Source: Dehalococcoidia bacterium
GTDB taxonomy: Bacteria > Chloroflexota > Dehalococcoidia > Plut-88900
Length of the DNA: 64,000 nt
Assembly: GCA_965249275.1 (NCBI GenBank)
Contig: CBDFLQ010000007.1
Location: 32,001 to 96,000, forward strand
Direction of reading: 5' to 3'
Shown here: positions 34,956-51,109 of the stretch, one piece after another
Layout of the letters: every line of letters begins with the position of its first letter
Numbering within the stretch: position 1 is the stretch's first letter
Position numbers and translations under genes: made by a program
The notes under the pieces: model-generated
Database searches by the model: none
Seen by the model: only the letters and a program-made list of their open reading frames with translations
Told to the model about the DNA's origin: nothing

Positions 34956-37900
34956 TTGACTCATTCATACAATCTCCGAATCGGAGTGACCCTGGCCGTA
35001 CTCGTCATTGCAGCGAGTGTTTTCCTGGGATGGTCGGCACTATCCCTGCCTGCGTTGGCGAACGGGAATGATTGGGGGATGGTTGAAGTAAGTGAAGTCA
35101 CAAAGACTCGGGCCAAGGTGACGGTCACCTTCGTCGACGAAACCGCAAGCGGCCATGCGTATTGGCGCTTCCGCACGACCATGCCCGAGGGACAATGGCT
35201 CGGACTTGACGGGGTCTCGGTCATCGGCGGTATCTCCGTATTCGATATTGCTATGCTGAGCCCCGGGACCGATTATGAGTTACAAGTGTCTCTCGACGGG
35301 GATTTTTTGCAGACTGACATCCTATCTAAGAAATTTACAACCCTTCCCCCCGACCCATCCGTCTCTGAAGTGATTGTTGAAGATATCACCCTGACGGAGG
35401 GAACCGTCCTCGTAACCATTGCCAACCCAGGTACTTCGTCCAAGACGGTCTACGTCCGCTACCGCACCGACGACACCCAACCCTGGAGCAATCCGCCAAT
35501 CACCATAACCACCGTGACGGGTACGGCGATGAAAAAGCTGTCCGGCCTATCTCCCGGTACCCGGTATGAAGTAGAGGCCTCCTTGGGTGACGGTTTCCTG
35601 CCCACCGAGACTGAATCCACGACTTTCACCACCCTTCTCCCAAGGGTCTCAAGTGTGAGGCTAGAAAATGTCACCACTTCCGAGGCAATGGTCAATGTGA
35701 CCATCGCCGAACCGTGGCCTGGTGAAAATAGGGTCCACTTGCGTTACAGCATCGCGCCTTCAACACAAGCATCCTGGATTAAGCCTGCTCCAAAGTCGGT
35801 GGTTGGAGATACCGAAACGTTTGATCTGACGAGTTTAGCCCCAGCCACCGAATACGAAGTGGAAGCATCCCTGGATGGCGAGTTCATGACGGGGGTCGAG
35901 TCCGCCACCTTCACTACGGCGGCTTCCCCGAGCATCGGATCGGTGAACATGGCCGGCGTCGAGCAGAATTCAGCAAGCGCCATTGTCAGCATATTCGACT
36001 CGGATGGGACTGCCGTGACGATCAACCTGCGCTACCGCGAGACATCCAGTGGAGATTGGAATGCGGCCCAACCGAAGACGTCTACGACTGATACTATGGA
36101 CTTCACATTGTCGGGCCTGACGCCGGACACGGAATACGAGGTGGAAGTGTCGCTCGACAACGGCTTCTCTCTAAGTCAGTTCACCTTTTTCATTACCGAA
36201 TCAATGACATCCAGGCCACCCTCCCCAGTGGTTCGAATCTCCGGTCTCTTCGCAGAAGATATAACGCCTGGCTCGGTGACCGTGATTGTAATGATCGCCG
36301 GCCCGGAAAACCGAGTAACAGTGAATTTGCGGTATAGGGTCGAAGGCACGAATACGTGGAGCCGTATACTCCGCCGAACCACCGCTACGTCGACCGCTCA
36401 ATTCGAACTTGGAGGACTGACAACCGCTACGAACTACGAAATAGAAGCGTCCCTAGATCCCAACTTTCCGATCCAAGATTCCGCGTACGATATCTTCACA
36501 ACTGCAGCAGTTCGGGTCTCGGGGGTCAGGCTGGAAGACATAACCGACACAGAGGCGACCGCGATTGCAGAGATTGAAGATCCCCAAGGCCGGACTACGG
36601 TCTTCGTGCGCTACATAGCCTTGGGAACGGGGGCTTGGAGCGAACCCCAAAGCCGAATTACTAGCTCCAGTACGGTGCGTCTTTTCCTAGCGGACCTCCT
36701 GCCGGATACTCAATACGAGGTGGAGGCCTCTTCAGAGGAGAGCTTCCCCGGTGATAACTCGGCACTCGAGACATTTATCACCGAGCCCGCGCCCAGGGTC
36801 TCTGAGGCAAATGTGGAGGGCATCACCAATGTGTCCGCCACATTTGCAGTGGACATTGACAGCCCACAGGCTCAGATGAAGGTATATCTGCGGTTCCGTA
36901 TCGAGGGTACAGGGACCTGGAGTACGACCAGAACCCGTACTACCTCCATACCCAGCGCGCGGTTTTCCCTAGCGGACCTGAAGTCTGATACCGGATATGA
37001 AGTCGAGACATCCCTTGACAAGGACTTCCCCGCGGGCAGCACTGTATCTGTGGTCTTTTCTACGCAACCGAATCCCAAAGTCTCGGACGTGACAGTCGAG
37101 GACATAACGGAAAAGAGCGGGACTGCAATTGTGAAGATTGACGGGCCACAACCCCGGACAACGGTCTATCTTCGCCATCGCTCCCAGGGAGACTCAGCTT
37201 GGAACGTGCCTCAAACCCGAACAACCTCTTTGGACACTGCGCGATTTACTTTGTCGGGACTGATGCCGGACACCGGGTACAACGTAGAGATCTCACTGAA
37301 TCACGACTTCGATGAGCTCATTTCTGAGACCTTTCTCACGGCTGCAAAAAGGCCGAAGCCAACCTCCGTAACAGGAGGGCCCATTACACAGACCACGGCC
37401 GCTATCATTGTGCATATAGACGACCCTCAAGGCAGTTTGACAATCCATCTACGTATCCGAATTTGGGGCTCAAATACTTGGAACAATCCTGAAACCCTCG
37501 TAACGTCGGCCTCCGCCGCTCCCTTCGACCTGAAACGCCTTACAGGAGGCACAACCTACGAAGTCGAGGTGTCCCTTGAATCAGCCTTCCCTCCTGCGGA
37601 TACGGTTTCGGCCATCTTCACGACCACCCCTGCGACTAAGGTGTCGGGGGTGAATGTCGGAAGTGTTGCTGCAATAGAAGCCACCGTCACGGTCACAATT
37701 TCCCACTCTGAAGGGAATATCCGGACGGTCTATATGCGCTACCGCGGGCTGCCTGAGGGGGACTGGAGTGCAAGCCAAACGGAAACGGATGCGTCAACAA
37801 TGGATGCCCTTCTACCGGGCTTGATTCCCGATATGGAATACGAGGTACAGGCCTCGTTGTATGAGACTTTTCCGACTACCGACACCCAAGTACAGAGGTT

Positions 37901-38366
37901 CAATACTCTTTCCGCACAGCCCATGGAGATGCCAACCCCCGTGCCCGCAGCAACACCCACTCCTACACCTACACCCGTACCCACATCAACACCCGAACCC
38001 ATATTTACCCCCGAACCAACTCCCACATCCACACCCACAGTTGAGCCTACCATGACCCCCACCCCTCCACCCCCTCCGTCACCCACGCCCCTACCGTCTC
38101 TCACCCCTACTCCCATGGCAACTCCCAGCTATACGCCCACCCCGACCAGTGAGCCCAAACCCGCCGAGATACCTGCTCCCATGCCTACCACAATCCTAAC
38201 TGCGCCTGCACTATTATCACCCACCCCTGCACCCACCTCGACATCTCAGGCGGAGGAAGAAGAGACCGGGACAGACTTAGCCCTCGTGATCACCATAGTC
38301 ACATTGGTCATTGCCTTTACTATGGTGATCGGCTTCTTCGTATACCGCCGGAGAACGGTGAGTTAG
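34956..38366 (+). CDS. Cell-surface protein: signal peptide, 10 fibronectin type III-like repeats, Pro/Thr linker, C-terminal membrane anchor
   Basis: Ten repeats of about 95 aa with (Y/L)R..W and LxPxTxYE(V/I)xxSL, then PTPT-rich linker, TM helix and RRR stop-transfer. Start codon uncertain. Confidence 0.88.
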   Translation: MTHSYNLRIGVTLAVLVIAASVFLGWSALSLPALANGNDWGMVEVSEVTKTRAKVTVTFVDETASGHAYWRFRTTMPEGQWLGLDGVSVIGGISVFDIAMLSPGTDYELQVSLDGDFLQTDILSKKFTTLPPDPSVSEVIVEDITLTEGTVLVTIANPGTSSKTVYVRYRTDDTQPWSNPPITITTVTGTAMKKLSGLSPGTRYEVEASLGDGFLPTETESTTFTTLLPRVSSVRLENVTTSEAMVNVTIAEPWPGENRVHLRYSIAPSTQASWIKPAPKSVVGDTETFDLTSLAPATEYEVEASLDGEFMTGVESATFTTAASPSIGSVNMAGVEQNSASAIVSIFDSDGTAVTINLRYRETSSGDWNAAQPKTSTTDTMDFTLSGLTPDTEYEVEVSLDNGFSLSQFTFFITESMTSRPPSPVVRISGLFAEDITPGSVTVIVMIAGPENRVTVNLRYRVEGTNTWSRILRRTTATSTAQFELGGLTTATNYEIEASLDPNFPIQDSAYDIFTTAAVRVSGVRLEDITDTEATAIAEIEDPQGRTTVFVRYIALGTGAWSEPQSRITSSSTVRLFLADLLPDTQYEVEASSEESFPGDNSALETFITEPAPRVSEANVEGITNVSATFAVDIDSPQAQMKVYLRFRIEGTGTWSTTRTRTTSIPSARFSLADLKSDTGYEVETSLDKDFPAGSTVSVVFSTQPNPKVSDVTVEDITEKSGTAIVKIDGPQPRTTVYLRHRSQGDSAWNVPQTRTTSLDTARFTLSGLMPDTGYNVEISLNHDFDELISETFLTAAKRPKPTSVTGGPITQTTAAIIVHIDDPQGSLTIHLRIRIWGSNTWNNPETLVTSASAAPFDLKRLTGGTTYEVEVSLESAFPPADTVSAIFTTTPATKVSGVNVGSVAAIEATVTVTISHSEGNIRTVYMRYRGLPEGDWSASQTETDASTMDALLPGLIPDMEYEVQASLYETFPTTDTQVQRFNTLSAQPMEMPTPVPAATPTPTPTPVPTSTPEPIFTPEPTPTSTPTVEPTMTPTPPPPPSPTPLPSLTPTPMATPSYTPTPTSEPKPAEIPAPMPTTILTAPALLSPTPAPTSTSQAEEEETGTDLALVITIVTLVIAFTMVIGFFVYRRRTVS

Positions 38367-38429: not shown

Positions 38430-38705
38430 ATGCCGAGGATACAACTGATACTCTCGGACGAAGAGCGAGAGTTGTTTAAGGCCCAAGCACATCGAGAGGG
38501 CAAATCCCTTGATGAATGGCTGAAGGTTGCCGCTCTCCAGCGTCTGGGGTGGGCACCCCCTGTAGCCAAGTCTGGCAAAATTGAAGACCTTGATGCGTTC
38601 TTCCGTAAGTGCGATGCGATTCCAGGACCCGAGCGTGAGCCCGACTGGGAAGAGTACAAGAAGCTGATTAATGAGGTGCGCCCGTCAGTAGCGGATGCCT
38701 CGTGA
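38430..38705 (+). CDS. Antitoxin (RHH-like)
   Basis: MPRIQLILSDEE..AHREGKSLDEWL; GTGA overlap with the PIN gene; TATAAT and GGGAGG upstream. Confidence 0.78.
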   Translation: MPRIQLILSDEERELFKAQAHREGKSLDEWLKVAALQRLGWAPPVAKSGKIEDLDAFFRKCDAIPGPEREPDWEEYKKLINEVRPSVADAS

Positions 38706-39085
38706 TTTTCGTCGACACCAACGTCTTCATTTATGCTGTGGGCAGCAGTCATCCGTTGAAGAGTCCGGCGGAGGAGTTTTTCCGTAGTGCTCGGGACAGC
38801 GGCACGTCCCTAGTTACCTCTGCGGAAGTGCTCCAAGAGTTGCTCCACGTCTATCGACGCACTGGTAGACTTCAACAATTGGATGATGCGATGTTACTGG
38901 TCACAAGTGACATCGTACAAGCGTGGCCTTTGGAGTGGGCGGATGTGGACAAAGCCCGACAACTTCACGATAGCCATCCTGAACTGGAGGCCCGAGACCT
39001 CTGCTATCTCGCAAGCTGCCAAAGGCGTGGCATATCGACGATCATGACTTTCGACCAGCCTTTGCTGGCGGCGGCTAGCGCCTAA
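38702..39085 (+). CDS. vapC: PIN-domain toxin
   Basis: IFVDTNVFIYA, TSAEVLQE, ARDL and MTFD. Confidence 0.9.
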   Translation: MIFVDTNVFIYAVGSSHPLKSPAEEFFRSARDSGTSLVTSAEVLQELLHVYRRTGRLQQLDDAMLLVTSDIVQAWPLEWADVDKARQLHDSHPELEARDLCYLASCQRRGISTIMTFDQPLLAAASA

Positions 39086-40292: not shown

Positions 40293-41396
40293 GTGTGCGC
40301 GATGCGATACCCGACCTGGGAAGAGTTCATGGGCGATTGGGAGGAGTTCATCAAGGGCAGTTTCGGGGACAGGCCTATGTTCCCCACCCTCGCCCCCGAG
40401 ACTCCCACCTTCATGGGCCTGCCAGAGGCCAAGACGCCGGAAGACCTGAAGGGCGTTGACGCGGCGATAATCGGCGCGCCCTACGTGGCCACAACCCACG
40501 AGACCTATGCGGGAGTTGACCGAAACGAGTGGCTTTCGGCGCCGAAGAGGGTCAGGCAGCAGTCGGCGCGCTACCAGTCGGGGTACATTCAGGAGTTCCG
40601 GATGGACGTTTTTGATCACCTGAAGGTCGTCGACTACGGTGACGCTCCCATACCAGCCGAGGTTATGAGAGACCAGTCCCCCGAAAACATACTGAAGGCC
40701 CAGGCCGCCGTAGAGATGAAGGTAGGACAGGTGCTGGATGCCGGGGCCATTCCGGTGGTTATCGGGCAGAACTCTCCGTGCGGGTCCTATGCCATCGCAA
40801 AGCCGATAGCCGAGCGTACCGACGGCTCCGTGGGCTGTGTCAGCCTAGACACACACTGGGACATCCAACCGATAGACTTCCTGTCCCAGGACCCGAGAAT
40901 CGCCGGCTCGGCGAGCTGGAAGCACAAGATGTACGAGTTTCACGAAAACATGCACCCCCAGCACCTGGTCGAGATTGGGGAACGGGGGATGCTGGAGAGA
41001 AAGGACCTGGTCGAATCGTATACCGACCGTGGGGCGCGGTTTATCTCCTCATGGGAGGTGCGGGACGAGCTCGGCATGAAGGGCGTTGCCCACGAACTGG
41101 ATCGGGCTTACAACGGCACGAAAGCCGTGTACGTCCACTTCGACATGGATGTGATGGGCGGGGCTGGCCCAGCGCCCGGAGACATCCTCGGCGAGGCAGT
41201 GGAGCCCATAGGCCTATCCGACTTCGAGATTATCAAGATAGCCCATGAGGTGGGGAAGCGGGGGGTGTCGGGATTCTCTTTCATCTGCATCCCGCCCGGG
41301 TCGGCAGTGGTCTATCGGGTGATTGTCTACGTCATCATGTACATGCTCGCCGGGGTAGCGATGGCCAAGAGGGACGGGACTTACCTACTTAAGTAA
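40293..41396 (+). CDS. Arginase/agmatinase (ureohydrolase) family protein with an atypical metal site
   Basis: PTFMGLP, VVDYGD, LDTHWD, EIGER and VHFDMD; the canonical GGDHS is replaced by GQNSPCGS. Confidence 0.82.
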   Translation: MCAMRYPTWEEFMGDWEEFIKGSFGDRPMFPTLAPETPTFMGLPEAKTPEDLKGVDAAIIGAPYVATTHETYAGVDRNEWLSAPKRVRQQSARYQSGYIQEFRMDVFDHLKVVDYGDAPIPAEVMRDQSPENILKAQAAVEMKVGQVLDAGAIPVVIGQNSPCGSYAIAKPIAERTDGSVGCVSLDTHWDIQPIDFLSQDPRIAGSASWKHKMYEFHENMHPQHLVEIGERGMLERKDLVESYTDRGARFISSWEVRDELGMKGVAHELDRAYNGTKAVYVHFDMDVMGGAGPAPGDILGEAVEPIGLSDFEIIKIAHEVGKRGVSGFSFICIPPGSAVVYRVIVYVIMYMLAGVAMAKRDGTYLLK

Positions 41397-41422
41397 GATT
41401 TAAAAAAGCCGCGCCCGGTCTC

Positions 41423-42238
41423 TCACCGACCCGGCGGCCGCTGATCGGCTGGCAGTTCGCTTCCGCCGGTCCCGTGGGTGAAATCTTCACCCCATTCGTA
41501 AGGCAGGTCCGTGATCTTGCCCGGCTCGTCGAGCGTGTCCAGAGTGCCGAGAGCATCCTTGATGATGTTCGTCTGGAGCTCTCTGTCGAACGGCTTGCCA
41601 CATTGATGTCCCAAAGGGAAGTTGACGAACACGGGCCGGGGTGGCTTCACCTGAGCCATCATGTCCCTGACCGAGCCTACGTACACGGTGCTGACGCCTA
41701 CCTCTTCAACTACCCTCGCTAGCAGTCCAACGGACTGGTGGTCCAGCGGTCAGGCAGGTACACAGAAGAGGACGTCAACCTTGGCCTCCTTGAGTTTTCT
41801 GGCGATCTCAGCCGCCAACTGTGTCTGGAGAGCTGTACGCTTGTACATTCTCCCCATACCGAGTCCGTAGTTGATTTCGGCCAGTTCCCCTATATAGCCC
41901 TCCTGCTCCAACTCCCGGAATCTGTCTAAAGGCAAGATGACGTTGGGGTCCCGGTCGGCGTCACGGTGGTCATAATAGTTGTAGTTGATTATCAGGTCTT
42001 TGGTCGGGGTGTCTTTGGAGATCTCCCGGTAGCTTAGCTCGCTTCTGGCCAAGGGGTCGAAAGGCTCCTGGTCCCTGCGGGACATCCCCGAGGAGCAGAG
42101 CAGTGCCACCTTCGCCTGGTCGAGCGGCTTCTCGAACGGGCTCCAGGTCGTGGTCTGGAACACTGACCACTTGTAGGGTGGAAACCCGTGGCCTTGATAA
42201 TAGGCGTTGAGGTTGGCTACGTAGTCTATGGGCTTCAT
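41423..42238 (-). CDS. Selenoprotein of the glycine/sarcosine/betaine/D-proline reductase B (GrdB/PrdB) family, 271 aa, Sec at TGA 41750-41752
   Basis: Track ORFs 41750-42238 and 41423-41686 share a frame and read VLFCVPA-U-PLDHQSVGLLARVVEEVGVSTV..KPPR..FPLGH. N-half has KVALLCSSG, DPNVILPLDRFREL and EGYIG. SECIS-like hairpin directly after UGA. Confidence 0.88.
41717..41748 (-). promoter_or_regulatory. Bacterial SECIS-like hairpin
   Basis: mRNA after UGA: C-CGCUGG-ACCAC-CAGUCC-GUU-GGACUG-CUAGCG, giving a 6-bp lower stem, 5-nt bulge, 6-bp upper stem and a G-led apical loop. Confidence 0.72.
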
Positions 42239-42363
42239 CCACGACCTCCTTGCTATAGGGGCAATCCCCGCTCCAGCCTTTGCAACCGTCTCAACTTCTC
42301 TGGGGCCACCTCATTCCGCCGGGACACTGTCTGAATCGCATTGGCTACCATTTATTTTCGGCG

Positions 42364-42392
42364 AGTGTAGCATTCGGAATACCCTACTTCAA
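42364..42392 (-). promoter_or_regulatory. Sigma70 promoter of the selenoprotein gene
   Basis: TTGAAG - 17 nt - TACACT with an extended TGn; AAGGAGG RBS before the ATG at 42238. Confidence 0.5.
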
Positions 42393-42404
42393 ACTGTCCG
42401 GGCG

Positions 42405-42539
42405 CGGTGGGTGTCGTGATTTTCCTTCATCTGCATCCCTGCGGGGTCGGCAGTCAAATATCATGTGATTGTCTACTTTGATATGTACCTACTCGCTGGT
42501 GTGGCGATGGCGGAGAGGGATGGGACTTACTTGCCGAAA
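42405..42539 (+). pseudogene. Degenerate duplicate of the 3' end of the ureohydrolase gene (41259-41393)
   Basis: RWVS*FSFICIPAGSAVKYHVIVYFDMYLLAGVAMAERDGTYLPK versus RGVSGFSFICIPPGSAVVYRVIVYVIMYMLAGVAMAKRDGTYLLK: 35/45 aa identical, no indels. Confidence 0.88.
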
Positions 42540-42555
42540 TATGGCGAAATAGTAG

Positions 42556-42594
42556 AGCAAAAGATTCGGGCGGTTGGCTTAGCCAACCGCCCGA
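42556..42594 (-). terminator. Intrinsic terminator of tmRNA
   Basis: 14-bp inverted repeat TCGGGCGGTTGGCT/AGCCAACCGCCCGA followed on the - strand by ATCTTTT. Confidence 0.8.
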
Positions 42595-42607: not shown

Positions 42608-42960
42608 TGGTGGAGACGGGGGAGGGTCGAACTCCCCGTCCAGAAGGTGGCCCCAGAGCGTCTACAGGCTTAGACGGCACTTAAATTTCGCCCGCCGTAT
42701 CGCAGCCGACGACGACAACGGAAGGCTAGCTGAATAGTCTTAACCTGTCCCTCACAGCATTAGGGCAGGAGCACCTCGATTTGCGTCGCCCTGAGACGGC
42801 CTTCGAGGAGAGGCCGAACAGGACGGGTTACCTAGTGTCTAGGCAGCCAGTGCGTACTGACGTTTGCCAGTTATGTTTTTGCCGCTGGTTTTACGAGTCC
42901 CACGGCGCCTCGGCCTGCAACCCTGGGTTACCGTGACTCCTGTCGAGCCCACGCGTCCCC
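42608..42960 (-). ncRNA. ssrA: tmRNA; tag peptide (A)GKRQYALAA
   Basis: 5' GGGGACG..CTCGAC and 3' GTTCGA T-arm with CGTCTCCACCA (G3.U alanine determinant). Resume context ATAACT-GGC; tag ORF 42839-42868; directly downstream of smpB. Confidence 0.96.
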
Positions 42961-43027: not shown

Positions 43028-43489
43028 CTAGCTGCGTCTTATGCCAGTTTCCTTGAGGACGGCCCGCTGCATCTGCCTATCGGCCTCCCGGCGTGCGATG
43101 GCCGCTCGCTTGTCATAAAGTTTGCGCCCACGCGCCACCCCGATCTCTATCTTCGCCTTATGGTTCTTGATGTAGAGCCTCAGCGGCACCAGCGTCAATC
43201 CCTTCTCCTGCACCTTGGATGAGAGGTAGTCGATCTGGCCGCGGTGCAACAGCACCTTTCTAGGACGCATGGGCTCGTGGTTCGATCGATTGCCGTTGGA
43301 GTAAGGCGAAATGTGGGCGCCGTGGAGCCAAAGCTCGTCGTCTTCCGGGCGTGCGAACGCATCCCGGATGTTGACCTTGCCGTCCCGGATGGACTTGATC
43401 TCTGTGCCCGTGAGCACGAGTCCTCCTTCGAACGACTCCAGGATGTCGTATTCAAACCGGGCTTTGCGGTTGACGCTGATGGTTTTCAT
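43028..43489 (-). CDS. smpB: SsrA-binding protein
   Basis: NRKARFEY, LTGTEIKSIR, GLTLVPLRLY and RGRKLYDKR. Confidence 0.98.
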   Translation of the reverse strand: MKTISVNRKARFEYDILESFEGGLVLTGTEIKSIRDGKVNIRDAFARPEDDELWLHGAHISPYSNGNRSNHEPMRPRKVLLHRGQIDYLSSKVQEKGLTLVPLRLYIKNHKAKIEIGVARGRKLYDKRAAIARREADRQMQRAVLKETGIRRS

Positions 43490-43503: not shown

Positions 43504-44967
43504 TTATCCCGATATCGAAAGCACGTGTTCGACGGCTGCTTCCAGCTGGACGTCCTTCTGGGCCGCGAGATCGGCCTCGGTGAAAGACACCAGGATGTCA
43601 GGTTCGATGCCGAACCCCTCGATTACGTCGCCGTCGGGGGTGAGCCAGCGGGCAAAGGTAACATTCAGCCCCGACCCGTCAGACAGGTTGTATAGGCGGG
43701 TGACGCTTCCCTTGCCGAAAGTGGGGAGCCCGATAAGCTGGGCCCGGCCCCGGTCCTGCAGTGCGCCCGCCAGCACCTCTGCGCCGCTGGCGCTGTGCGC
43801 GTCTACCAGGACGGCAAGGGGCACGTCCAGGGCTGCGCCGCCGCCGTCAGCATTCCAGTCAGTCTTGCTTCCATTACCTTCCATCTCGATTAGCACCAGG
43901 CCGCCGTCCAGGAAGAGATCGGCAACCTGGACCGTCTCCCGCAGCAGCCCCCCCGGGTTCTGACGCACGTCCAGGATGATTCCCTTAGCTCCTTGGGACA
44001 GAGCTTCTTCCAAGAACGCCTCTGTCTCACCGGGGGTGCGGCGGGTAAACAGGTGGATCCTGATTCGGTATATGTCGTCGTCCAGGGATTCCATACTGAC
44101 ACTGTCGATTGGAATATTTCCGCGCACTATGACCACTCGCTCAGGGTCATGGTCCAGAAGGTGCTGGATCAGGAGCTCGACAGGCGTGCCTTCCGGCCCC
44201 CGGATGCGCAGTATCGACTCCCGCAGGGTGATGGAGTTCGCCTCGGTTCCGTCGATCTCCAGAATGATGTCGCCGGCCAGGATTCCGGCGGCCTCGGCGG
44301 GGGAGTTTTCCATTGGGGATATGACTATTGGGTACCCCTCACTATTGGTGCCCACGTAGGCCCCTATCCCGTGGAACGAACCCTCCAGGTCCGACTGTTC
44401 CAACCTCAGGTCTTCCCGGGACAGGTAGGCTGTATACGGATCGGCCAGGGCCCCGACCATGCCACGGATGGCGGCGATGCTCAGGTCTTCCAGCCCCAAA
44501 GCGTTATCGGTGGGTTGAGTGTATGCGTATGCGAGGACTTCGTAGGCCTCCTCCAGCTCGTCTCCTCCCGGCACCGAGAAATAATTCTCCTCCAGTTCCA
44601 GGTCGTATTCCAGGGCCCGAGCCTCGGCTATGGAAAGGGACGTGTCTTCGGTAGCTTCCAGGATACCGAATATGGCCCCGTCGCTCAGCACGCGCGGGTC
44701 TATGTCGTCGATTTCCACGTACTCCCGCTGGACTATGCGCCAAGCCTCATAGAGGGTGCGGGCTTCGTCTGGCAGGCTTATGGTGAGCGGCTCCTCATTG
44801 GGTTCCGCAGTAGCCGTGGATTGGGGGATGGCATCGGAGGTGGACTCATTGGGGGTCGAGTCCACGGGCGTTATATCCCCGCCCCCCCGGCATGCGAACA
44901 CGAGGGCGATGACGGAGATGAGAAGGATGACTGTAGCGAGCCGTTTAGAAATCGGCAAAATACTCAA
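43504..44967 (-). CDS. S41A carboxyl-terminal processing protease (probable lipoprotein)
   Basis: Lipobox-like LVFAC, DPYTAY, PDZ GIGA, LDVRQNPGG, SASGAE and TFGKG. Confidence 0.92.
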   Translation of the reverse strand: MSILPISKRLATVILLISVIALVFACRGGGDITPVDSTPNESTSDAIPQSTATAEPNEEPLTISLPDEARTLYEAWRIVQREYVEIDDIDPRVLSDGAIFGILEATEDTSLSIAEARALEYDLELEENYFSVPGGDELEEAYEVLAYAYTQPTDNALGLEDLSIAAIRGMVGALADPYTAYLSREDLRLEQSDLEGSFHGIGAYVGTNSEGYPIVISPMENSPAEAAGILAGDIILEIDGTEANSITLRESILRIRGPEGTPVELLIQHLLDHDPERVVIVRGNIPIDSVSMESLDDDIYRIRIHLFTRRTPGETEAFLEEALSQGAKGIILDVRQNPGGLLRETVQVADLFLDGGLVLIEMEGNGSKTDWNADGGGAALDVPLAVLVDAHSASGAEVLAGALQDRGRAQLIGLPTFGKGSVTRLYNLSDGSGLNVTFARWLTPDGDVIEGFGIEPDILVSFTEADLAAQKDVQLEAAVEHVLSISG

Positions 44968-46727: not shown

Positions 46728-46792
46728 GAAGGCACGGCACGTCGACATATATACTGGGCTATCGCCCTCGTTTAGCCTTGCCGGAGGTACCT

Positions 46793-48763
46793 ATGACCAC
46801 CTTGAAAAAGGCCCCCGAAGCCGCCGAGACTCGGTCCCAGACCGCCCATCCCCTCGATCCCCTCACCCCTGATGAAATAGTCCGCGCCGTGGAAATACTG
46901 AATCGGGACCAGGAAATTGGGACGCGTGTGAGGTACGAAACCGTCGTCCTCAACGAACCACCCAAGGATGACGTCCTGGCCTACGATGGGACGAAAGCGC
47001 TACCCCGTGAGGCTTTCATCTGCATCCTGGACAACGACTCCCGCCGCACCTACGAGGCCGTCGTCTCTCTCTCCGAGGACCGCGTGAAGTCCTGGAATCA
47101 CATCCCCGGAGTCCAGCCCAAGATCATGCTGGACGAGTTCTACGAGTGCGAACAGGCAGTTAAGCAGGACCCGGCCTTCCGAGAGGCCCTCGCCCGACGG
47201 GGAATCACCGATGTGGACCTCGTGATGGTTGATCCTTGGGCTGCAGGCAATTACGGGTATGAGGGCGACAACGGAATGCGGTTGTCCTACTCGCTCTGTT
47301 GGCTTCGCTCCAGCCCCAAGGACAATGGCTATGCCCGACCCATCGAGGGCGTCGTCCCGGTGGTCGACCTTAACGAGATGAAGGTACTGCGGGTTATCGA
47401 CCACGGCGTTGTGCCCCTCCCTCCGACCGACGGCAACTACTCCCAGAATTTCATTCACGAGTTCCGGGAAGACCTTAAGCCCATAGAAATCACCCAGCCC
47501 GAGGGCCCCAGTTTCACGGTGGACGGGTGGCATGTTGCCTGGCAGAAGTGGGACATGCGTCTCGGGTTCACTCCCAGGGAGGGCCTGGTCCTCTATGACA
47601 TCGCTTACACTGACCAAGGGCGTCGACGCCCGATTATCTACCGGACCTGTCTTTCCGAGATGGTTGTCCCCTACGGCGAGCCGAATTCGCCCCACTTCCG
47701 CAAGAACGCCTTCGACGCCGGAGAGTACGGCATCGGCAACCTGGCCAACTCCCTTACCCTGGGGTGTGACTGCTTGGGCGAGATTCGCTATTTCGACGCC
47801 GTGACAAATGACACCCGGGGCGGCGTAATGGAAATACCCAACGCCATCTGCATGCACGAAGAGGACTTCGGGATACTCTGGAAGCACGTCGACTGGCGGA
47901 CCGGAGAGACCGAGGTGCGGCGCTCCCGCCGATTGGTCGTCTCGTTCATCTCCACGGTCGGCAACTACGAATACGGGTTCTTCTGGTATTTCTACCAGGA
48001 CGGCACGATCCAGTACGAGGTCAAACTTACCGGCGTGCTCAACAACGCTGCCGTGCCCCCGGGCCACGTGCCCGAGCACGGGACTTTGATTGCACCTCAA
48101 CTCGCGGCCCACATCCATCAACACTTCTTCAACGTCAGGATGGACATGGCGGTGGATGGGCAGAAGAACTCAGTCTACGAGGTCAACAGCTACGCCTGCC
48201 CTGCTGACGAAAACAACCCCCACCACAACGCCTTCTATGCAGAGAAGACCCAGCTGAAGACCGAGTCCGAAGCCCAGCGCAACATCGACCCATACTCGGC
48301 CAGGTATTGGCTTATAACCAACGAATCGGAGACTAACTACCTTGGGCAGAAGACCTCCTACAAGCTGATACCGGGAGAGAATGTGCTGCCCTTTGCCCAC
48401 GACGACGCCTCGGTCATCAAAAGAGCGGGGTTCATGACCAAACACCTCTGGGTCACGCCCTACGATCCCGCGGAAATGGACGCCGCAGGCGACTACCCCA
48501 ATCAGCATCCGGGTGGGGCCGGACTTCCGGCTTACACGAAGGCCAACCGGAGCCTCGACAACACCGATCTCGTGGTCTGGTACACATTCGGACACCACCA
48601 CGTCCCTCGCCCCGAGGACTGGCCCGTCATGCCCGTGATGTACACAGGTTTCAGCCTGAAACCTGTCAGCTTCTTCGACCGGAACCCGGCCCTGGACGTG
48701 CCGCCTTCCAGCCACGGGAACGGCCATCACTGCGGCGGGCACAATGGCTCGTGCCACGCGTGA
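46793..48763 (+). CDS. tynA: Copper/TPQ primary-amine oxidase
   Basis: HPLDPL, catalytic Asp in AFDAGEYG, TPQ motif GNYEY, Cu ligands HQH and HHVPRPEDWP; no signal peptide. Confidence 0.95.
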   Translation: MTTLKKAPEAAETRSQTAHPLDPLTPDEIVRAVEILNRDQEIGTRVRYETVVLNEPPKDDVLAYDGTKALPREAFICILDNDSRRTYEAVVSLSEDRVKSWNHIPGVQPKIMLDEFYECEQAVKQDPAFREALARRGITDVDLVMVDPWAAGNYGYEGDNGMRLSYSLCWLRSSPKDNGYARPIEGVVPVVDLNEMKVLRVIDHGVVPLPPTDGNYSQNFIHEFREDLKPIEITQPEGPSFTVDGWHVAWQKWDMRLGFTPREGLVLYDIAYTDQGRRRPIIYRTCLSEMVVPYGEPNSPHFRKNAFDAGEYGIGNLANSLTLGCDCLGEIRYFDAVTNDTRGGVMEIPNAICMHEEDFGILWKHVDWRTGETEVRRSRRLVVSFISTVGNYEYGFFWYFYQDGTIQYEVKLTGVLNNAAVPPGHVPEHGTLIAPQLAAHIHQHFFNVRMDMAVDGQKNSVYEVNSYACPADENNPHHNAFYAEKTQLKTESEAQRNIDPYSARYWLITNESETNYLGQKTSYKLIPGENVLPFAHDDASVIKRAGFMTKHLWVTPYDPAEMDAAGDYPNQHPGGAGLPAYTKANRSLDNTDLVVWYTFGHHHVPRPEDWPVMPVMYTGFSLKPVSFFDRNPALDVPPSSHGNGHHCGGHNGSCHA

Positions 48764-48766
48764 CCC

Positions 48767-51109
48767 GTGGATGGTTTAAGCACAACCGAAATCGGAGCGG
48801 GGGACCTGAAGGCCGTACTGCCCGACCTGACTGGCACGCTCAACCTTTCCGGGTTGGATGGCCCTGTTACCGTCTACCGAGACCGGTCGGGCATACCGCA
48901 CGTCCAGGCATCCTCTCTGCACGACGCGTTCTTTGCCCAGGGATTCGTAACGGCTCAGGACCGGCTTTGGCACATGGACTGGGACCGTCGGCGAGCCTTG
49001 GGGAGATGGGCCGAAATAGCAGGGCCCGCGGGCGTCGAGCAGGACAAGCTGATGCGGAGATTTCGGCTCGGGGCAAGTGCAAAAGCCGACTTCGAAGTCG
49101 TGAGCCCGGACACGCAGGCCATGCTCGAAAGCTATGCCGGGGGCGTCAACGCATTCATTCAGACCGCCTCCGAGTTGCCCATCGAATACCGTATCATAGG
49201 CTCGGGCCCCGAGCCCTGGGAACCCTGGCACTCGATGGCGGTTTTCAAGGTGCGTCACATCCTGATGGGCTCCTTTGAGCGCAAGTTGTGGAACGCGCGG
49301 ATGGTCCGCAGGCTCGGCTACCAGAAGGCACAGGAAGCGATACCCAAGTCCCGGCCCGGCGAGCTGCTTATCGTGCCGCCGGGAGGCGAATACTCAGGCC
49401 CTTCGGATAAGTCGCTGCCGGACTTCCTTGAAGGCGCGGAGTGGCCGGGGCTCCCTACAAGGGAAGAGGGTGGAAGTAATAACTGGGCGGTGCACGGGAG
49501 CCGGACTGCCTCCGGCGCACCTCTCCTCGCAGGGGACCCGCATCGGGGACTTGAGGCGCCCAGCGTCTACTACCAAAACCACATAGCGTGTGACGAGTTT
49601 GATGTTGTAGGGCTCTCGTTCCCCGGCGTGCCGGGGTTTCCGCACTTTGGACACAACGCTCACGTCGCCTGGTGCGTAACCCACGCCATGGCCGACTACC
49701 AGGACCTCTTCATCGAGCGGTTCAAGAATGATGATCCCCGTTTCTTCGAGTTCAGGGGTGAGTGGGAACCCGCCGAGGTCTCGACCGAAGTTATACAAGT
49801 CGCAGGTGAGCCTTCGGAGCAATTCGAAATCATCTCCACGAGGCACGGTTCTATCGTGGCAGGAGACCCGGCCAAAGGGACGGCTTTGGCTCTCAAGTAC
49901 ACCGCCACTGCCGAACCCATCAAGGCCTTCGACTCGATAAGTCGGATGCTCGCTGCCACGTCGGTTGACGAGATGGATGAGTCGATGCGGGACTGGGTTG
50001 ATCCAGCCAACAACTTCGTCTGCGTAGATGTGCAAGGCGACATAAAGTACCTGACCCGGGGCCGACTCCCGATCAGGCCCAAGGCCAACGGATGGGTCCC
50101 TGTGCCCGGCTGGAGCGGCGACTACGAATGGACGGGCTACGTCCCCTTCGAGGAAATGCCAAGGTCTCGGAACCCCGAGACCGGTTTTATCGTCACCGCC
50201 AACAACCGCATCACCGACGAGGACTATCCTTACTACATCGGCCTGGACTACGACGGCGAGCATCGAGCCAGGTGTATCTATCAGGCCCTCGAATCACTAG
50301 CCTCGGCTACGGTGGAAGACATGACCTCTGTGCACGCGCTGCGTACGTCGATACCGGCCCGGGAGCTGTGTGAGCTGCTGAACGATGTGGAGATGCGCAC
50401 CGAAGCCGCCGTCGAGGCCAAACGCCTACTCCATTCATGGGACTGCCGGATGGACAGAGACCGTCCGGAACCAACTATCTTTAGCGCCTTTCATGATGCC
50501 CTCGCCGAGGCCTATTCCGCGTCCATCCTCGGGCCCCTGGCCGAAGAAATGGCCGGTGAGACGGGACGGGGAGCGCCGTCCTGGTACGGGCGCACAAAGT
50601 CGAGCCTGCACGATAAGCTCAAGTCGGCATCCTCCTCCGGCGAGATGACTGAAGTTCACTCTCTTCTCGCTGGAGCCTTGGAAACAGCAGTTACTAAGCT
50701 GAAGGCTTGGCTCGGGGAGGAGATGTCCGATTGGACCTGGGGCCGAGTCCACAAAACGAGTCCCAAGCACGCCCTATCCGCTGCCTTTCCCAATCTGGCC
50801 CAGGAACTTAATCCCCCGTCTGTGGGCACCCACGGAGACGGCTTCACGCCCTTGGCGGGCTCCTACTCGGCTGCGGAGCCATACATACTCACGTCGGCTT
50901 CGATGGCACGGTACGTCTTCGATGCGTCGGACTGGGAAAACTCTCGCTGGGTCGTGCCTCTGGGAGCGTCCGGGCATCCGGGAAGCCCTCACTACTCCGA
51001 CCAGGCCGAGACATGGGCCAACGTTGCTCTCCTACCCATGATCTACGACTGGGAAGCGGTCTCCCGTCAGTCCGAGACTCATCAGTCCCTGCTCCCGGCA
51101 ACCGATTAA
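48767..51109 (+). CDS. Penicillin acylase family (S45) Ntn hydrolase, cytoplasmic
   Basis: RDRSGIPHV, AQDRLWHMD, GSNNW nucleophile, AGDPH, TANN and GASGHPGSPHYSDQ. Confidence 0.93.
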   Translation: MDGLSTTEIGAGDLKAVLPDLTGTLNLSGLDGPVTVYRDRSGIPHVQASSLHDAFFAQGFVTAQDRLWHMDWDRRRALGRWAEIAGPAGVEQDKLMRRFRLGASAKADFEVVSPDTQAMLESYAGGVNAFIQTASELPIEYRIIGSGPEPWEPWHSMAVFKVRHILMGSFERKLWNARMVRRLGYQKAQEAIPKSRPGELLIVPPGGEYSGPSDKSLPDFLEGAEWPGLPTREEGGSNNWAVHGSRTASGAPLLAGDPHRGLEAPSVYYQNHIACDEFDVVGLSFPGVPGFPHFGHNAHVAWCVTHAMADYQDLFIERFKNDDPRFFEFRGEWEPAEVSTEVIQVAGEPSEQFEIISTRHGSIVAGDPAKGTALALKYTATAEPIKAFDSISRMLAATSVDEMDESMRDWVDPANNFVCVDVQGDIKYLTRGRLPIRPKANGWVPVPGWSGDYEWTGYVPFEEMPRSRNPETGFIVTANNRITDEDYPYYIGLDYDGEHRARCIYQALESLASATVEDMTSVHALRTSIPARELCELLNDVEMRTEAAVEAKRLLHSWDCRMDRDRPEPTIFSAFHDALAEAYSASILGPLAEEMAGETGRGAPSWYGRTKSSLHDKLKSASSSGEMTEVHSLLAGALETAVTKLKAWLGEEMSDWTWGRVHKTSPKHALSAAFPNLAQELNPPSVGTHGDGFTPLAGSYSAAEPYILTSASMARYVFDASDWENSRWVVPLGASGHPGSPHYSDQAETWANVALLPMIYDWEAVSRQSETHQSLLPATD

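Follow-up and report, generated by a model that had tools for sequence, protein, structure and literature searches.

A PrdB-like selenoprotein gene of a U-x-x-D clade, split by gene calling, in a Dehalococcoidia genome

The gene and its in-frame UGA

The locus lies on the minus strand of a 64,000-nucleotide stretch of Dehalococcoidia DNA, referred to here as the window, and consists of a PrdB-like selenoprotein gene at positions 41423–42238 (271 codons followed by a TGA stop), assigned to the GRDB family and, within it, to a clade with the motif U-P-L-D-H-Q. Under translation table 11, this gene appears as two ORFs, one of 162 aa (41750–42238) and one of 87 aa (41423–41686), the latter opening with a GTG start that is located 21 codons past an in-frame TGA at 41750–41752. 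When TGA is read as U, positions 41423–42238 yield a single 271-residue frame with one internal TGA at residue 163, in the context ...VLFCVPA-U-PLDHQSVGLLAR... (motif VPA-U-PLDHQ). The original prediction had considered the two ORFs to be one frame joined by this TGA and had assigned the gene a promoter and ribosome-binding site of its own. The read-through translation and the corresponding codons of homologues agree with the single frame. A Shine-Dalgarno-like AGGAGG can likewise be read from the sequence at 42245–42250 on the minus strand, 6 nt 5' of the ATG at 42238–42236, whereas the promoter was not recovered: a scan for sigma-70-like consensus sites gave two matches, both intragenic, and none in the intergenic region at 42239–42565. 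Upstream of this region is a tmRNA gene, the sole Rfam match in the neighbourhood, with a strong terminator at 42594–42566, implying that expression of the PrdB-like gene involves either separate initiation or read-through. Contigs assembled from RNA libraries of relatives span the TGA in three of four runs without any listed difference at this codon, at low depth and with possible DNA carry-over. These contigs leave 42326–42553 (intergenic) and 41300–41584 (the 3' end) uncovered.

To characterize the TGA, the aligned codon was tabulated in 81 gene copies (80 related loci). TGA was found in 72, TGC in eight and TGT in one, such that nine Cys codons stand beside the 72 TGA codons and no other residue is encoded there. 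Past the TGA, the frame stays open for about 100 codons and is strongly conserved, and the 21 codons that separate the TGA from the next possible start contain residues that are invariant in 77 aligned homologues. Residue 163 also aligns with the TGA-encoded residue of a 442-aa GrdB-like protein from the same genome (BLASTP E 5e-14), in keeping with the earlier proposal that selenocysteine (Sec) occupies the GrdB-type Sec position. Judged by these alignments, both called ORFs are parts of a single gene whose product is a selenoprotein of 271 residues, with UGA-163 decoded as Sec.

It should be considered whether the TGA is instead a true stop. The locus would then contain two separate genes or a pseudogene, or the TGA would stem from a sequencing error, and Sec would play no part. 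Public gene callers do split the gene: among the 120 listed of 178 database homologues, 117 are 200 aa or shorter and stop just before the Sec site (103 of the 120 are exactly 162 aa in length), while the three full-length entries present C, C and W at this site. The recurrence of TGA at the same codon in most copies across many phyla, with substitution only by Cys codons, nonetheless speaks against a true stop, as does the conserved frame of some 100 codons beyond it, with 21 codons before any restart. The truncated entries also show that annotation pipelines miss the PrdB-like family, 117 of the 120 listed close-relative entries ending at the UGA.

The SECIS hairpin and the decoding machinery

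Immediately 3' of the UGA, at 41715–41749 on the minus strand, the minimum-free-energy fold contains a two-stem hairpin composed of a lower stem, a 5-nt bulge on the 5' side, a 6-bp upper stem (41737–41732 paired with 41728–41723) and a GUU loop (41731–41729). The region matched no Rfam family. As a single sequence, the hairpin is no more stable than expected by chance (z = -0.61; an equally good fold was obtained for 55 of 200 shuffles), and support for the element was thus taken from covariation. Across the 72 TGA-bearing sequences, 70 of them distinct, 93.2% of upper-stem cells are paired, three pairs present compensatory changes (CG/UA 31:31, UA/AU 33:31 and GC/AU 62:4), and the G and U of the loop are invariant; the covariation score was reached by none of 500 shuffles. 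In all nine Cys-codon homologues, one central stem pair is broken and the loop GU is changed to GC. The GUU-loop hairpin that had been noted after the UGA is therefore present in the fold and, as the covariation and its loss in the Cys forms argue, is a real SECIS.

For the decoding machinery, profile searches of the source genome returned selA (541.3 bits), selB (369.4 bits) and selD (388.7 bits), all above the curated cut-offs, and selD itself contains one TGA. By contrast with these three genes, tRNA-Sec was not found in the source assembly, whether by the Rfam model, by ARAGORN, by a regular-expression scan or by blastn using a relative's selC region; this assembly comprises seven contigs, is 87% complete and is also without tRNA-Ile and tRNA-Asn genes. 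The best 'tRNA-Sec' matches within it correspond to tRNA-Ser or to an odd element with a GCC anticodon. Two chromosomes from the same genus do carry tRNA-Sec (anticodon tca, 65.8–67.3 bits). The search for sel genes that had been suggested along with the original prediction thus succeeded for selA, selB and selD, while selC was found only in the same-genus chromosomes. SelA was found in all three of the searched genomes that carry TGA forms and in neither of the two that carry Cys forms.

The absence of tRNA-Sec from the source assembly is a further point in favour of a true stop. The presence of SelA, SelB and SelD, together with the SECIS covariation, stands against it, and we consider a true stop to be already contradicted by the evidence and highly improbable. 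From the genes and alignments at hand, UGA-163 is decoded by SelA, SelB, SelD and, presumably, tRNA-Sec, guided by the conserved hairpin 3' of the UGA.

Family placement and comparison with known reductases

The protein scores 44.1 bits against Pfam PF07355 (GRDB), over residues 32–156 and with a cut-off of 22, and it shares the Sec column of this family, as expected for the GrdB/PrdB-type selenoprotein hidden by gene calling that had been proposed. The ESM Atlas clusters closest to a natural Cys homologue also bear GRDB or PrdB names. Among curated families, the best score is obtained with TIGR04483, the PrdB equivalog (165.6 bits, E 1.2e-48, residues 29–250 of 271), although this remains below the cut-off of 300. 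The subfamily model TIGR01918 gives 47 bits with a cut-off of 65.45.

The replacement of the expected Cys by Asp at position +3 was likewise found as predicted, the motif being U-P-L-D here, but it is no isolated oddity of this genome. Asp is found at +3 in 78 of the 81 clade copies. In the wider family, C/U-P-x-C-H-Q prevails: of 116 stretches that cover the site among the top 150 representatives, 74 are C..C and four are C..D. In a FastTree phylogeny, the U-x-x-D proteins form one set of 78 rows with a support of 97; two Chloroflexi Sec forms with U-x-x-C (L059 and L103) are unresolved at its base. The hosts include Chloroflexota, Desulfobacterota-type deltaproteobacteria, Alpha- and Gammaproteobacteria, Actinomycetota, Binatota and others, with marine Gamma- and Alphaproteobacteria and Myxococcota-type MAGs among them, and, within the class of the source genome, 75 of the 201 genomes sampled carry a relative. 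In the 77-sequence alignment, residue 163 is the only invariant Cys/Sec column. Invariant residues after the TGA include P164, H167, R175, E178, G181, T184 and R201, and further invariant polar residues are Y22, W24, H91, D93, D97, N99, R130, Y132, R134, D155 and Q222. Taking the profile, motif and tree together, the protein belongs to the GrdB/PrdB superfamily, as part of a distinct clade of short, stand-alone U/C-P-L-D-H-Q proteins. In the GrdB-like paralogues of the source genome, too, the canonical Cys residues are missing (TUGTGTRSG), and one of these paralogues is found close to GrdA.

The nearest outgroups in the tree are stand-alone (U/C)-P-x-C-H-Q PrdB-like proteins, mostly Cys forms, which are of the same length class and share the motifs H-x-YYDH-x-DA-x-x-D-x-N, FMGR-x-Y-x-R, PPR and FPLG, but which keep the Cys at +3. 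The homology to GrdB, GrdF and GrdH (about 430 aa) is confined to their C-terminal half (PF07355 positions 216–341); the window protein, at 271 aa, does not have the N-terminal half of approximately 200 residues, scores only 41–48 bits where the cut-offs are 602–800 (TIGR01917, 45.3 against 602; GrdF, 48.2 against 800; GrdH, 40.9 against 775) and is not accompanied by a grdE/grdA/grdC neighbourhood. D-proline reductase is an enzyme of strict amino-acid fermenters. The hosts of the window clade, going by their names, do not belong to the Stickland fermenters; among them are marine Gammaproteobacteria MAGs and one isolate that bears the label Kordiimonadales. Clostridial PrdB resembles the window protein in its PF07355 superfamily and in its similarly short length (the TIGR04483 profile has 238 positions), but differs at the motif, as the Asp takes the place of the U-x-x-C Cys. 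Two reviews list TIGR04483 with a U-x-x-C Sec motif (PMC9312934, PMC13188914), and GrdB is given as U-x-x-C-x-x-C (PMC13188914), as compared to U-P-L-D-H-Q in the window. Given a score below the PrdB cut-off, Asp at +3 and the usual lack of a GrdE/PrdA partner, described below, the protein is, by these sequence criteria, not D-proline reductase PrdB.

PrdB-like proteins are among the commonest selenoproteins of marine and sediment metagenomes, where they are still labelled 'D-proline reductase'. For the U-x-x-D branch this label is almost certainly wrong, as this large and phylogenetically coherent branch has neither a resolving Cys nor, in most hosts searched, a pyruvoyl partner. 'PrdB' homologues outside Clostridia, including Cys homologues, are found in the surveys of Zhang and Gladyshev of 2005, 2006 and 2008, which, in the parts accessible, count 42 genes in the Sargasso Sea and 235 Sec and 110 Cys forms in GOS, and also place 'PrdB' in Anaeromyxobacter and Geobacter (PMC1088965, PMC1794560, PMC2398784). 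The same parts give the motif as UxxC and the name as proline reductase, with no mention of a U-x-x-D form or of PrdA being absent (PMC1088965, PMC1794560, PMC2398784). Since the clade described here contains marine Gamma- and Alphaproteobacteria and Myxococcota-type MAGs, it probably overlaps the 'PrdB' entry of these surveys. No description of the U-x-x-D form was found in the open literature searched, which on proline reductase in Chloroflexi or Dehalococcoidia yielded only these selenoproteome surveys and one glycine-reductase paper.

Pyruvoyl partners, neighbourhood and proposed chemistry

The original prediction had described the gene as an orphan without adjacent partner genes. The orphan status applies to adjacency only, as the genome carries GrdE/PrdA-family genes elsewhere. 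Within the window, no gene of this family (PF09338) is adjacent, whereas the search for prdA/grdE across the source genome found four PF09338 genes, arranged as two tandem pairs (C6:683426–686164 and C5:630753–633358), on contigs other than that of the PrdB-like gene. No B-type selenoprotein was found among the scanned genes flanking these pairs; their flanks do contain CoA-transferase III and acyl-CoA dehydrogenase genes, families that are found beside the PrdB-like gene of deltaproteobacterial loci as well. The source genome further contains a GrdA gene that has a TGA in frame, and nine PF09338 matches were found in a close relative (G005). Among 98 co-directional neighbours at 48 of 79 loci, none belongs to PF09338, and this family was not found in four of five other host genomes (two complete or chromosome-level genomes with Cys forms and two large genomes with Sec forms).

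These observations bear on whether the protein is a substrate-specific 'protein B' selenosubunit that operates in trans with a GrdE/PrdA-family proprotein, in a Stickland-type reductive cleavage of the C-N (or C-X) bond of a pyruvoyl-bound amine, in which GrdA or thioredoxin would stand in for the absent Cys. The two PF09338 pairs with no B-type selenoprotein at their flanks would be available as partners, the TGA-containing GrdA gene, the nine matches in the relative and the flanking families common to the pairs and the deltaproteobacterial loci fit as well, and the GrdB-like paralogues, equally devoid of the canonical Cys, include one near GrdA. On the other hand, a partner in trans should be considered in light of the four of five other genomes in which PF09338 was not found, the absence of this family from the 98 co-directional neighbours scanned and the location of all four candidates on different contigs from the gene. 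We thus regard a selenosubunit of this type as unlikely, although the PF09338 genes of the source genome and of G005 count against partner independence in this particular organism. A partner-independent, single-Sec enzyme is, on the distribution of these genes, the most likely form of the protein, and a chemistry distinct from that of the Stickland reductases, as proposed originally, is plausible.

The neighbourhood offers few clues to the substrate. In the source genome, the gene is monocistronic and lies outside any metabolic operon, and no operon is conserved across its genus. Loci from other phyla place it within catabolic-looking operons, the contents of which vary between phyla and which hint, loosely, at acyl-CoA and methyl-group metabolism. 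Some hosts carry a conserved ACAD-ACAD-gene-O-methyltransferase-NMO cluster. The argE-like (M20) and arginase-family ureohydrolase neighbours, in which an indication of an amino-acid or amine substrate had been seen, were discarded as clues to function: both are convergent with the gene, are conserved in only three of the six closest Dehalococcoidia loci, and therefore say little about the substrate.

An AlphaFold2 model of the protein (pLDDT 90.5, pTM 0.90) places residue 163 between a strand (156–160) and a helix (164–179). Neither the protein sequence nor the 77-sequence profile retrieved a relative from the PDB, and Foldseek gave no PDB match at E <= 0.001. VIA-align matches, with a best Z of 7.9, were to Rossmann-like, periplasmic-binding and SDR folds, and were discarded as unrelated and within the background of the tool. 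In the model, Sec163 would cap the N-terminus of the helix that follows the beta-strand in a Rossmann-like alpha/beta domain, and would serve as the catalytic nucleophile or redox centre. As the clade has no conserved second Cys, its members would be unable to close the internal selenenylsulfide of their U-x-x-C relatives. Asp166 and the invariant His167, predicted from helix geometry to lie one turn from Sec163, would most likely act as acid/base, and alkylated or oxidised selenium would then be freed by an outside thiol (of the thioredoxin type) or by water.

Alternatively, the protein could be a one-selenol redox protein, peroxidase- or reductase-like and comparable to 1-Cys peroxiredoxins or to U-x-x-S/T selenoproteins, in which Sec would cycle via selenenic acid or by forming a mixed Se-S bond, either with thioredoxin or with a small thiol. 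The single conserved Sec/Cys at a helix N-cap, the preference for Sec over Cys (72 of 81 copies), which is typical of redox selenoproteins, and the monocistronic gene with no metabolic operon in the source genome are all compatible with such a role. Yet the many invariant polar residues suggest a small-molecule site shared with the substrate-binding GrdB/PrdB proteins, the operons around the gene in other phyla look catabolic and no match to a thioredoxin fold or peroxidase was seen, and we find a purely redox role quite improbable. With modest confidence, we favour the combined explanation of a Sec-decoded protein of the GRDB clade that would be independent of a partner in most hosts and would use a catalytic Sec163 with Asp166 and His167.

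A bolder extension, which we offer as speculation and consider doubtful, is that the clade represents a new class of enzymes, descended from a Stickland-type selenoprotein B, in which a selenol and an Asp-His pair, completing a triad, would act free of a pyruvoyl group and of an Se-S cycle, as a lyase, transferase or hydrolase on a methylated or CoA-linked small molecule. If true, this would explain the abundant 'PrdB' selenoproteins of oxic oceans and non-fermenting bacteria. Sec163, Asp166, His167 and the SECIS are now defined as testable features, and natural Cys forms, one of which is found in the complete genome of Kordiimonadales bacterium IMCC3096, provide an entry to genetics and biochemistry that does not call for Sec insertion.

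The reading frame and decoding of its internal TGA

The gene at 41423-42238 on the minus strand is one open frame of 271 codons plus a stop, of which the sole interruption is a TGA at 41750-41752, in the context ...KVDVLFCVPA-U-PLDHQSVGLLARVVEE... Translation under table 11 splits this frame into a 162-aa ORF (41750-42238) and an 87-aa ORF, for which the only possible restart is a GTG 21 codons past the TGA. A Shine-Dalgarno-like AGGAGG was read in the sequence 6 nt 5' of the ATG. A total of 178 database homologues were found and, among the 120 listed, 117 are no longer than 200 aa and 103 are exactly 162 aa, the short ones terminating in ...VPA or ...VAA, immediately ahead of the Sec site (residue 163). 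Three of the 120 listed are full-length, two reading VPA-C-PLDHQ and one VAA-W-PLDHQ. Trp or Gly is found precisely at the Sec position in public records P0008, P0141, P0145 and P0176, which could reflect genes called with TGA as Trp or Gly in the code, and not true substitutions.

Related loci were collected by a scan of one genome per species, in which 99 relatives gave 80 retained loci with 81 gene copies. Tabulating the codon aligned with the TGA, as the original prediction had proposed, revealed TGA or Cys codons only (72 TGA, 8 TGC and 1 TGT). In every copy, the frame remains open for about 100 codons past this codon and, in an alignment of 77 sequences, conservation beyond the site is among the highest in the protein, with P164, H167, R175, E178, G181, T184, R201, F204, P208, G210, G214 and Q222 being invariant. 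Two separate genes are thus ruled out, and the proposal that the two ORFs are one frame joined by the TGA was borne out. The gene is real and mis-annotated. The nearest relatives of the host are Dehalococcoidia, at 86-97% identity; in a class-wide sample, 75 of 201 genomes, including all 6 of the same genus, gave a match at E <= 1e-20, with an in-frame TGA in all but one of the matches listed.

The minimum free energy fold of the RNA 3' of the UGA is the predicted two-stem hairpin with a GUU loop. As a single sequence, this hairpin is no more stable than expected by chance (z = -0.61, with 55 of 200 shuffles folding equally well), and it is rather covariation that supports it. Across 70 distinct TGA-bearing sequences, the upper stem is paired in 93.2% of cells, pairing is kept by compensatory changes in three pairs (C-G/U-A 31:31, U-A/A-U 33:31 and G-C/A-U 62:4), and G and U of the loop do not vary. 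The covariation score was reached by none of 500 shuffles, all slid controls scored lower, and RNAalifold recovered the same helix. One covarying pair joins the first base of a Ser/Thr codon with the third base of a Gly codon, so conservation of the protein does not account for its covariation. In all nine Cys-codon homologues this pair is broken, and the loop GU is replaced by GC.

The search for Sec machinery found SelB (369 bits), SelA (541 bits) and SelD (389 bits) in the window's own genome (G000), all above the curated cut-offs. A tRNA-Sec was not found in this assembly, which is 87% complete in seven contigs and also misses tRNA-Ile and tRNA-Asn genes, while tRNA-Sec with anticodon TCA is present in two same-genus chromosomes. 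Among five other hosts searched, SelA was found in all three with TGA forms and not found in either of the two with Cys forms. Database homologues, site codon, hairpin and decoding machinery thus agree on UGA as selenocysteine, and we regard it as close to certain that the gene encodes a PrdB-like protein with decoded Sec. Short contigs from RNA libraries (90-99% alike) span the TGA in three of four runs, with no difference listed at this codon; given their low depth and possible DNA carry-over, they should be considered only a hint of expression.

Further TGA-containing genes in G000 encode GrdB-like and GrdA proteins. The selD gene (G000:C2:14217-15140, locus L012) has one in-frame TGA, so that SelD is probably itself a selenoprotein. 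Three unusual tRNA-like genes lie within 3 kb of contig C5 (G000:C5:382659-382747, 383323-383411 and 385421-385511, the last being L022 1501-1591). Two are 89 nt, called tRNA-Gly(gcc) and tRNA-Ala(tgc); in both, the variable arm is long, the anticodon stem has 6 bp and the D stem 3 bp, and CCA is encoded. The third reaches 34.6 bits with the tRNA-Sec model, although its anticodon is GCC. Presumably, these three genes resemble the 'allo-tRNAs' of the literature.

An Asp-bearing clade and its proposed chemistry

The Pfam GRDB model (PF07355; cut-off 22) matches residues 32-156 with 44.1 bits. Of the curated families, PrdB matches best (TIGR04483, E 1.2e-48), yet its 165.6 bits fall short of the equivalog cut-off of 300; the GrdB, GrdF and GrdH models, with cut-offs of 602-800, give 41-48 bits. 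In the alignment with a 442-aa GrdB-like protein from the same genome, residue 163 falls on the residue that TGA encodes there. When 1.84 billion cluster representatives were searched with a profile, the number of relatives was 3921 at E <= 0.001, 1623 at 1e-10 and 185 at 1e-30. Among the top 150 representatives, 116 aligned stretches cover the site, of which 74 read Cys at the site and again at +3 (most commonly CPVCHQ), as opposed to only four with C..D; the family norm is thus (U/C)-P-x-C-H-Q. The Asp noted in place of the second Cys was present in 78 of the 81 clade copies when residues at +3 were tabulated (76 PLDHQ, one PLDHH and one PRDHQ), the other three reading PVCHQ. Both motif types have all the remaining family motifs in common (H-x-YYDH-x-DA-x-x-D-x-N, FMGR-x-Y-x-R, PPR and FPLG). 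From such sequence comparison, the clade appears to retain the binding-site architecture, with the second Cys alone exchanged.

A FastTree phylogeny of 115 proteins, obtained rapidly and not bootstrapped, combined the 77 rows of alignment A4 with 38 full-length representatives (235-320 aa, Cys at the site). The Asp forms make up one 78-row set with local support of 97; two Chloroflexi U-x-x-C proteins lie at its base, their placement unresolved, and one long-branch outlier is placed elsewhere. The window protein groups with six Dehalococcoidia sequences, beside a large deltaproteobacterial group, and is a typical member of a widespread clade.

A confident AlphaFold2 model based on the 77-sequence alignment (pLDDT 90.5, pTM 0.90) presents an alpha/beta domain, with residue 163 between strand 156-160 and helix 164-179. 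Sequence search found no solved relative, and the fold matches of the model are generic. In CxxC/UxxC redox centres, the nucleophile is found at a helix N-cap, with the +3 and +4 residues one turn on; in the clade protein, this turn would instead be filled by Asp166 and the invariant His167, and the alignment contains no further conserved Cys column. Based on these features of model and alignment, Sec163 could act as a single-selenol catalyst, with an adduct or oxidised form of the selenol being resolved by an external thiol or water and Asp-His serving as acid/base. We give this proposal roughly even odds.

Genomic context and pyruvoyl partners

Co-directional putative operon partners were present in 48 of 79 loci, and none of the 98 scanned is a GrdE/PrdA-family protein. 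Of five other host genomes searched, four (~4.3, 4.6, 6.3 and 5.3 Mb) gave no match to PF09338, the domain of these pyruvoyl proproteins, and the fifth, a close Dehalococcoidia relative, gave nine. The clade as a family is therefore most likely not dependent on a pyruvoyl partner. For this organism alone, a partner acting in trans is possible: the noted lack of adjacent prdA/grdE held, but G000 has four PF09338 genes on other contigs, in two tandem pairs (L106-L109; G000:C6:683426-686164 and G000:C5:630753-633358). Genes for CoA-transferase III, acyl-CoA dehydrogenase and a molybdenum-hydroxylase subunit lie on their flanks, and no B-type selenoprotein was found among the scanned flanking genes of either pair.

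The partners that recur in this clade are acyl-CoA dehydrogenases (10 loci), family-2 O-methyltransferases (10 loci and one fragment), nitronate-monooxygenase (NMO)-type FMN enzymes and enoyl-CoA hydratases (4 loci each), URO-D-type methyltransferases (3 loci, one with a corrinoid protein), and UbiE-type methyltransferases, CoA-transferase III and DUF1847 (3 loci each). In other phyla, operon partners point only loosely toward acyl-CoA and methyl-group metabolism. A conserved deltaproteobacterial (Desulfobacterota-type) cluster (L041 5603-10980; likewise L033, L045, L060 and others) comprises two acyl-CoA dehydrogenase genes, the PrdB-like selenoprotein gene, a family-2 O-methyltransferase and an NMO-type FMN enzyme, sometimes near CoA-transferase III, enoyl-CoA hydratase or acyl-CoA synthetase genes.

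In the window, the argE-like (M20) and ureohydrolase (arginase-family) neighbours had been taken as a substrate hint; this reading loses its footing, as they are convergent with the selenoprotein gene and recur in only three of the six closest (Dehalococcoidia) loci. Upstream on the same strand (all minus) are an S41 (Ctp-type) peptidase gene (43504-44967) and smpB (43028-43489), followed by the tmRNA gene ssrA (42608-42960; ARAGORN tag peptide GKRQYALAA, Rfam 144 bits) with its 13-bp terminator (42594-42566), directly upstream of the selenoprotein gene. Coverage of the tmRNA in the RNA-library contigs is thousands of times deeper than that of the selenoprotein gene. The wider neighbourhood, on the plus strand, contains a copper amine oxidase (46778-48763), a penicillin-amidase-family protein (48767-51109), a 1136-aa fibronectin-III-like-repeat protein (34956-38366) and a PIN-domain gene (38702-39085).

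Three selenoproteome surveys (PMC1088965, PMC2398784, PMC1794560) count 'proline reductase PrdB', which has Cys homologues, as one of the most abundant marine selenoprotein families and also report it from Anaeromyxobacter and Geobacter, the motif being UxxC in all three. Two reviews give PrdB as UxxC and GrdB as UxxC (UxxCxxC) (PMC9312934, PMC13188914). Searches of open-access full text turned up neither a U-x-x-D form nor independence from PrdA. What is new here is the clear definition of the clade as a selenoprotein B variant that lacks the Cys and most likely acts without a partner. G000 also encodes two full-length GrdB-like selenoproteins of 442 and 461 aa, with one TGA each (L024 688-2016, G000:C6 ~703042-704370; L025 760-2145, G000:C6 ~129672-131057), whose motif T-U-G-T-G-T-R-S-G, unlike that quoted for GrdB, is without either Cys of U-x-x-C-x-x-C. 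Next after the L024 gene comes a DUF5940 protein, and at C6:705958-706398 there is a GrdA gene that contains a TGA.
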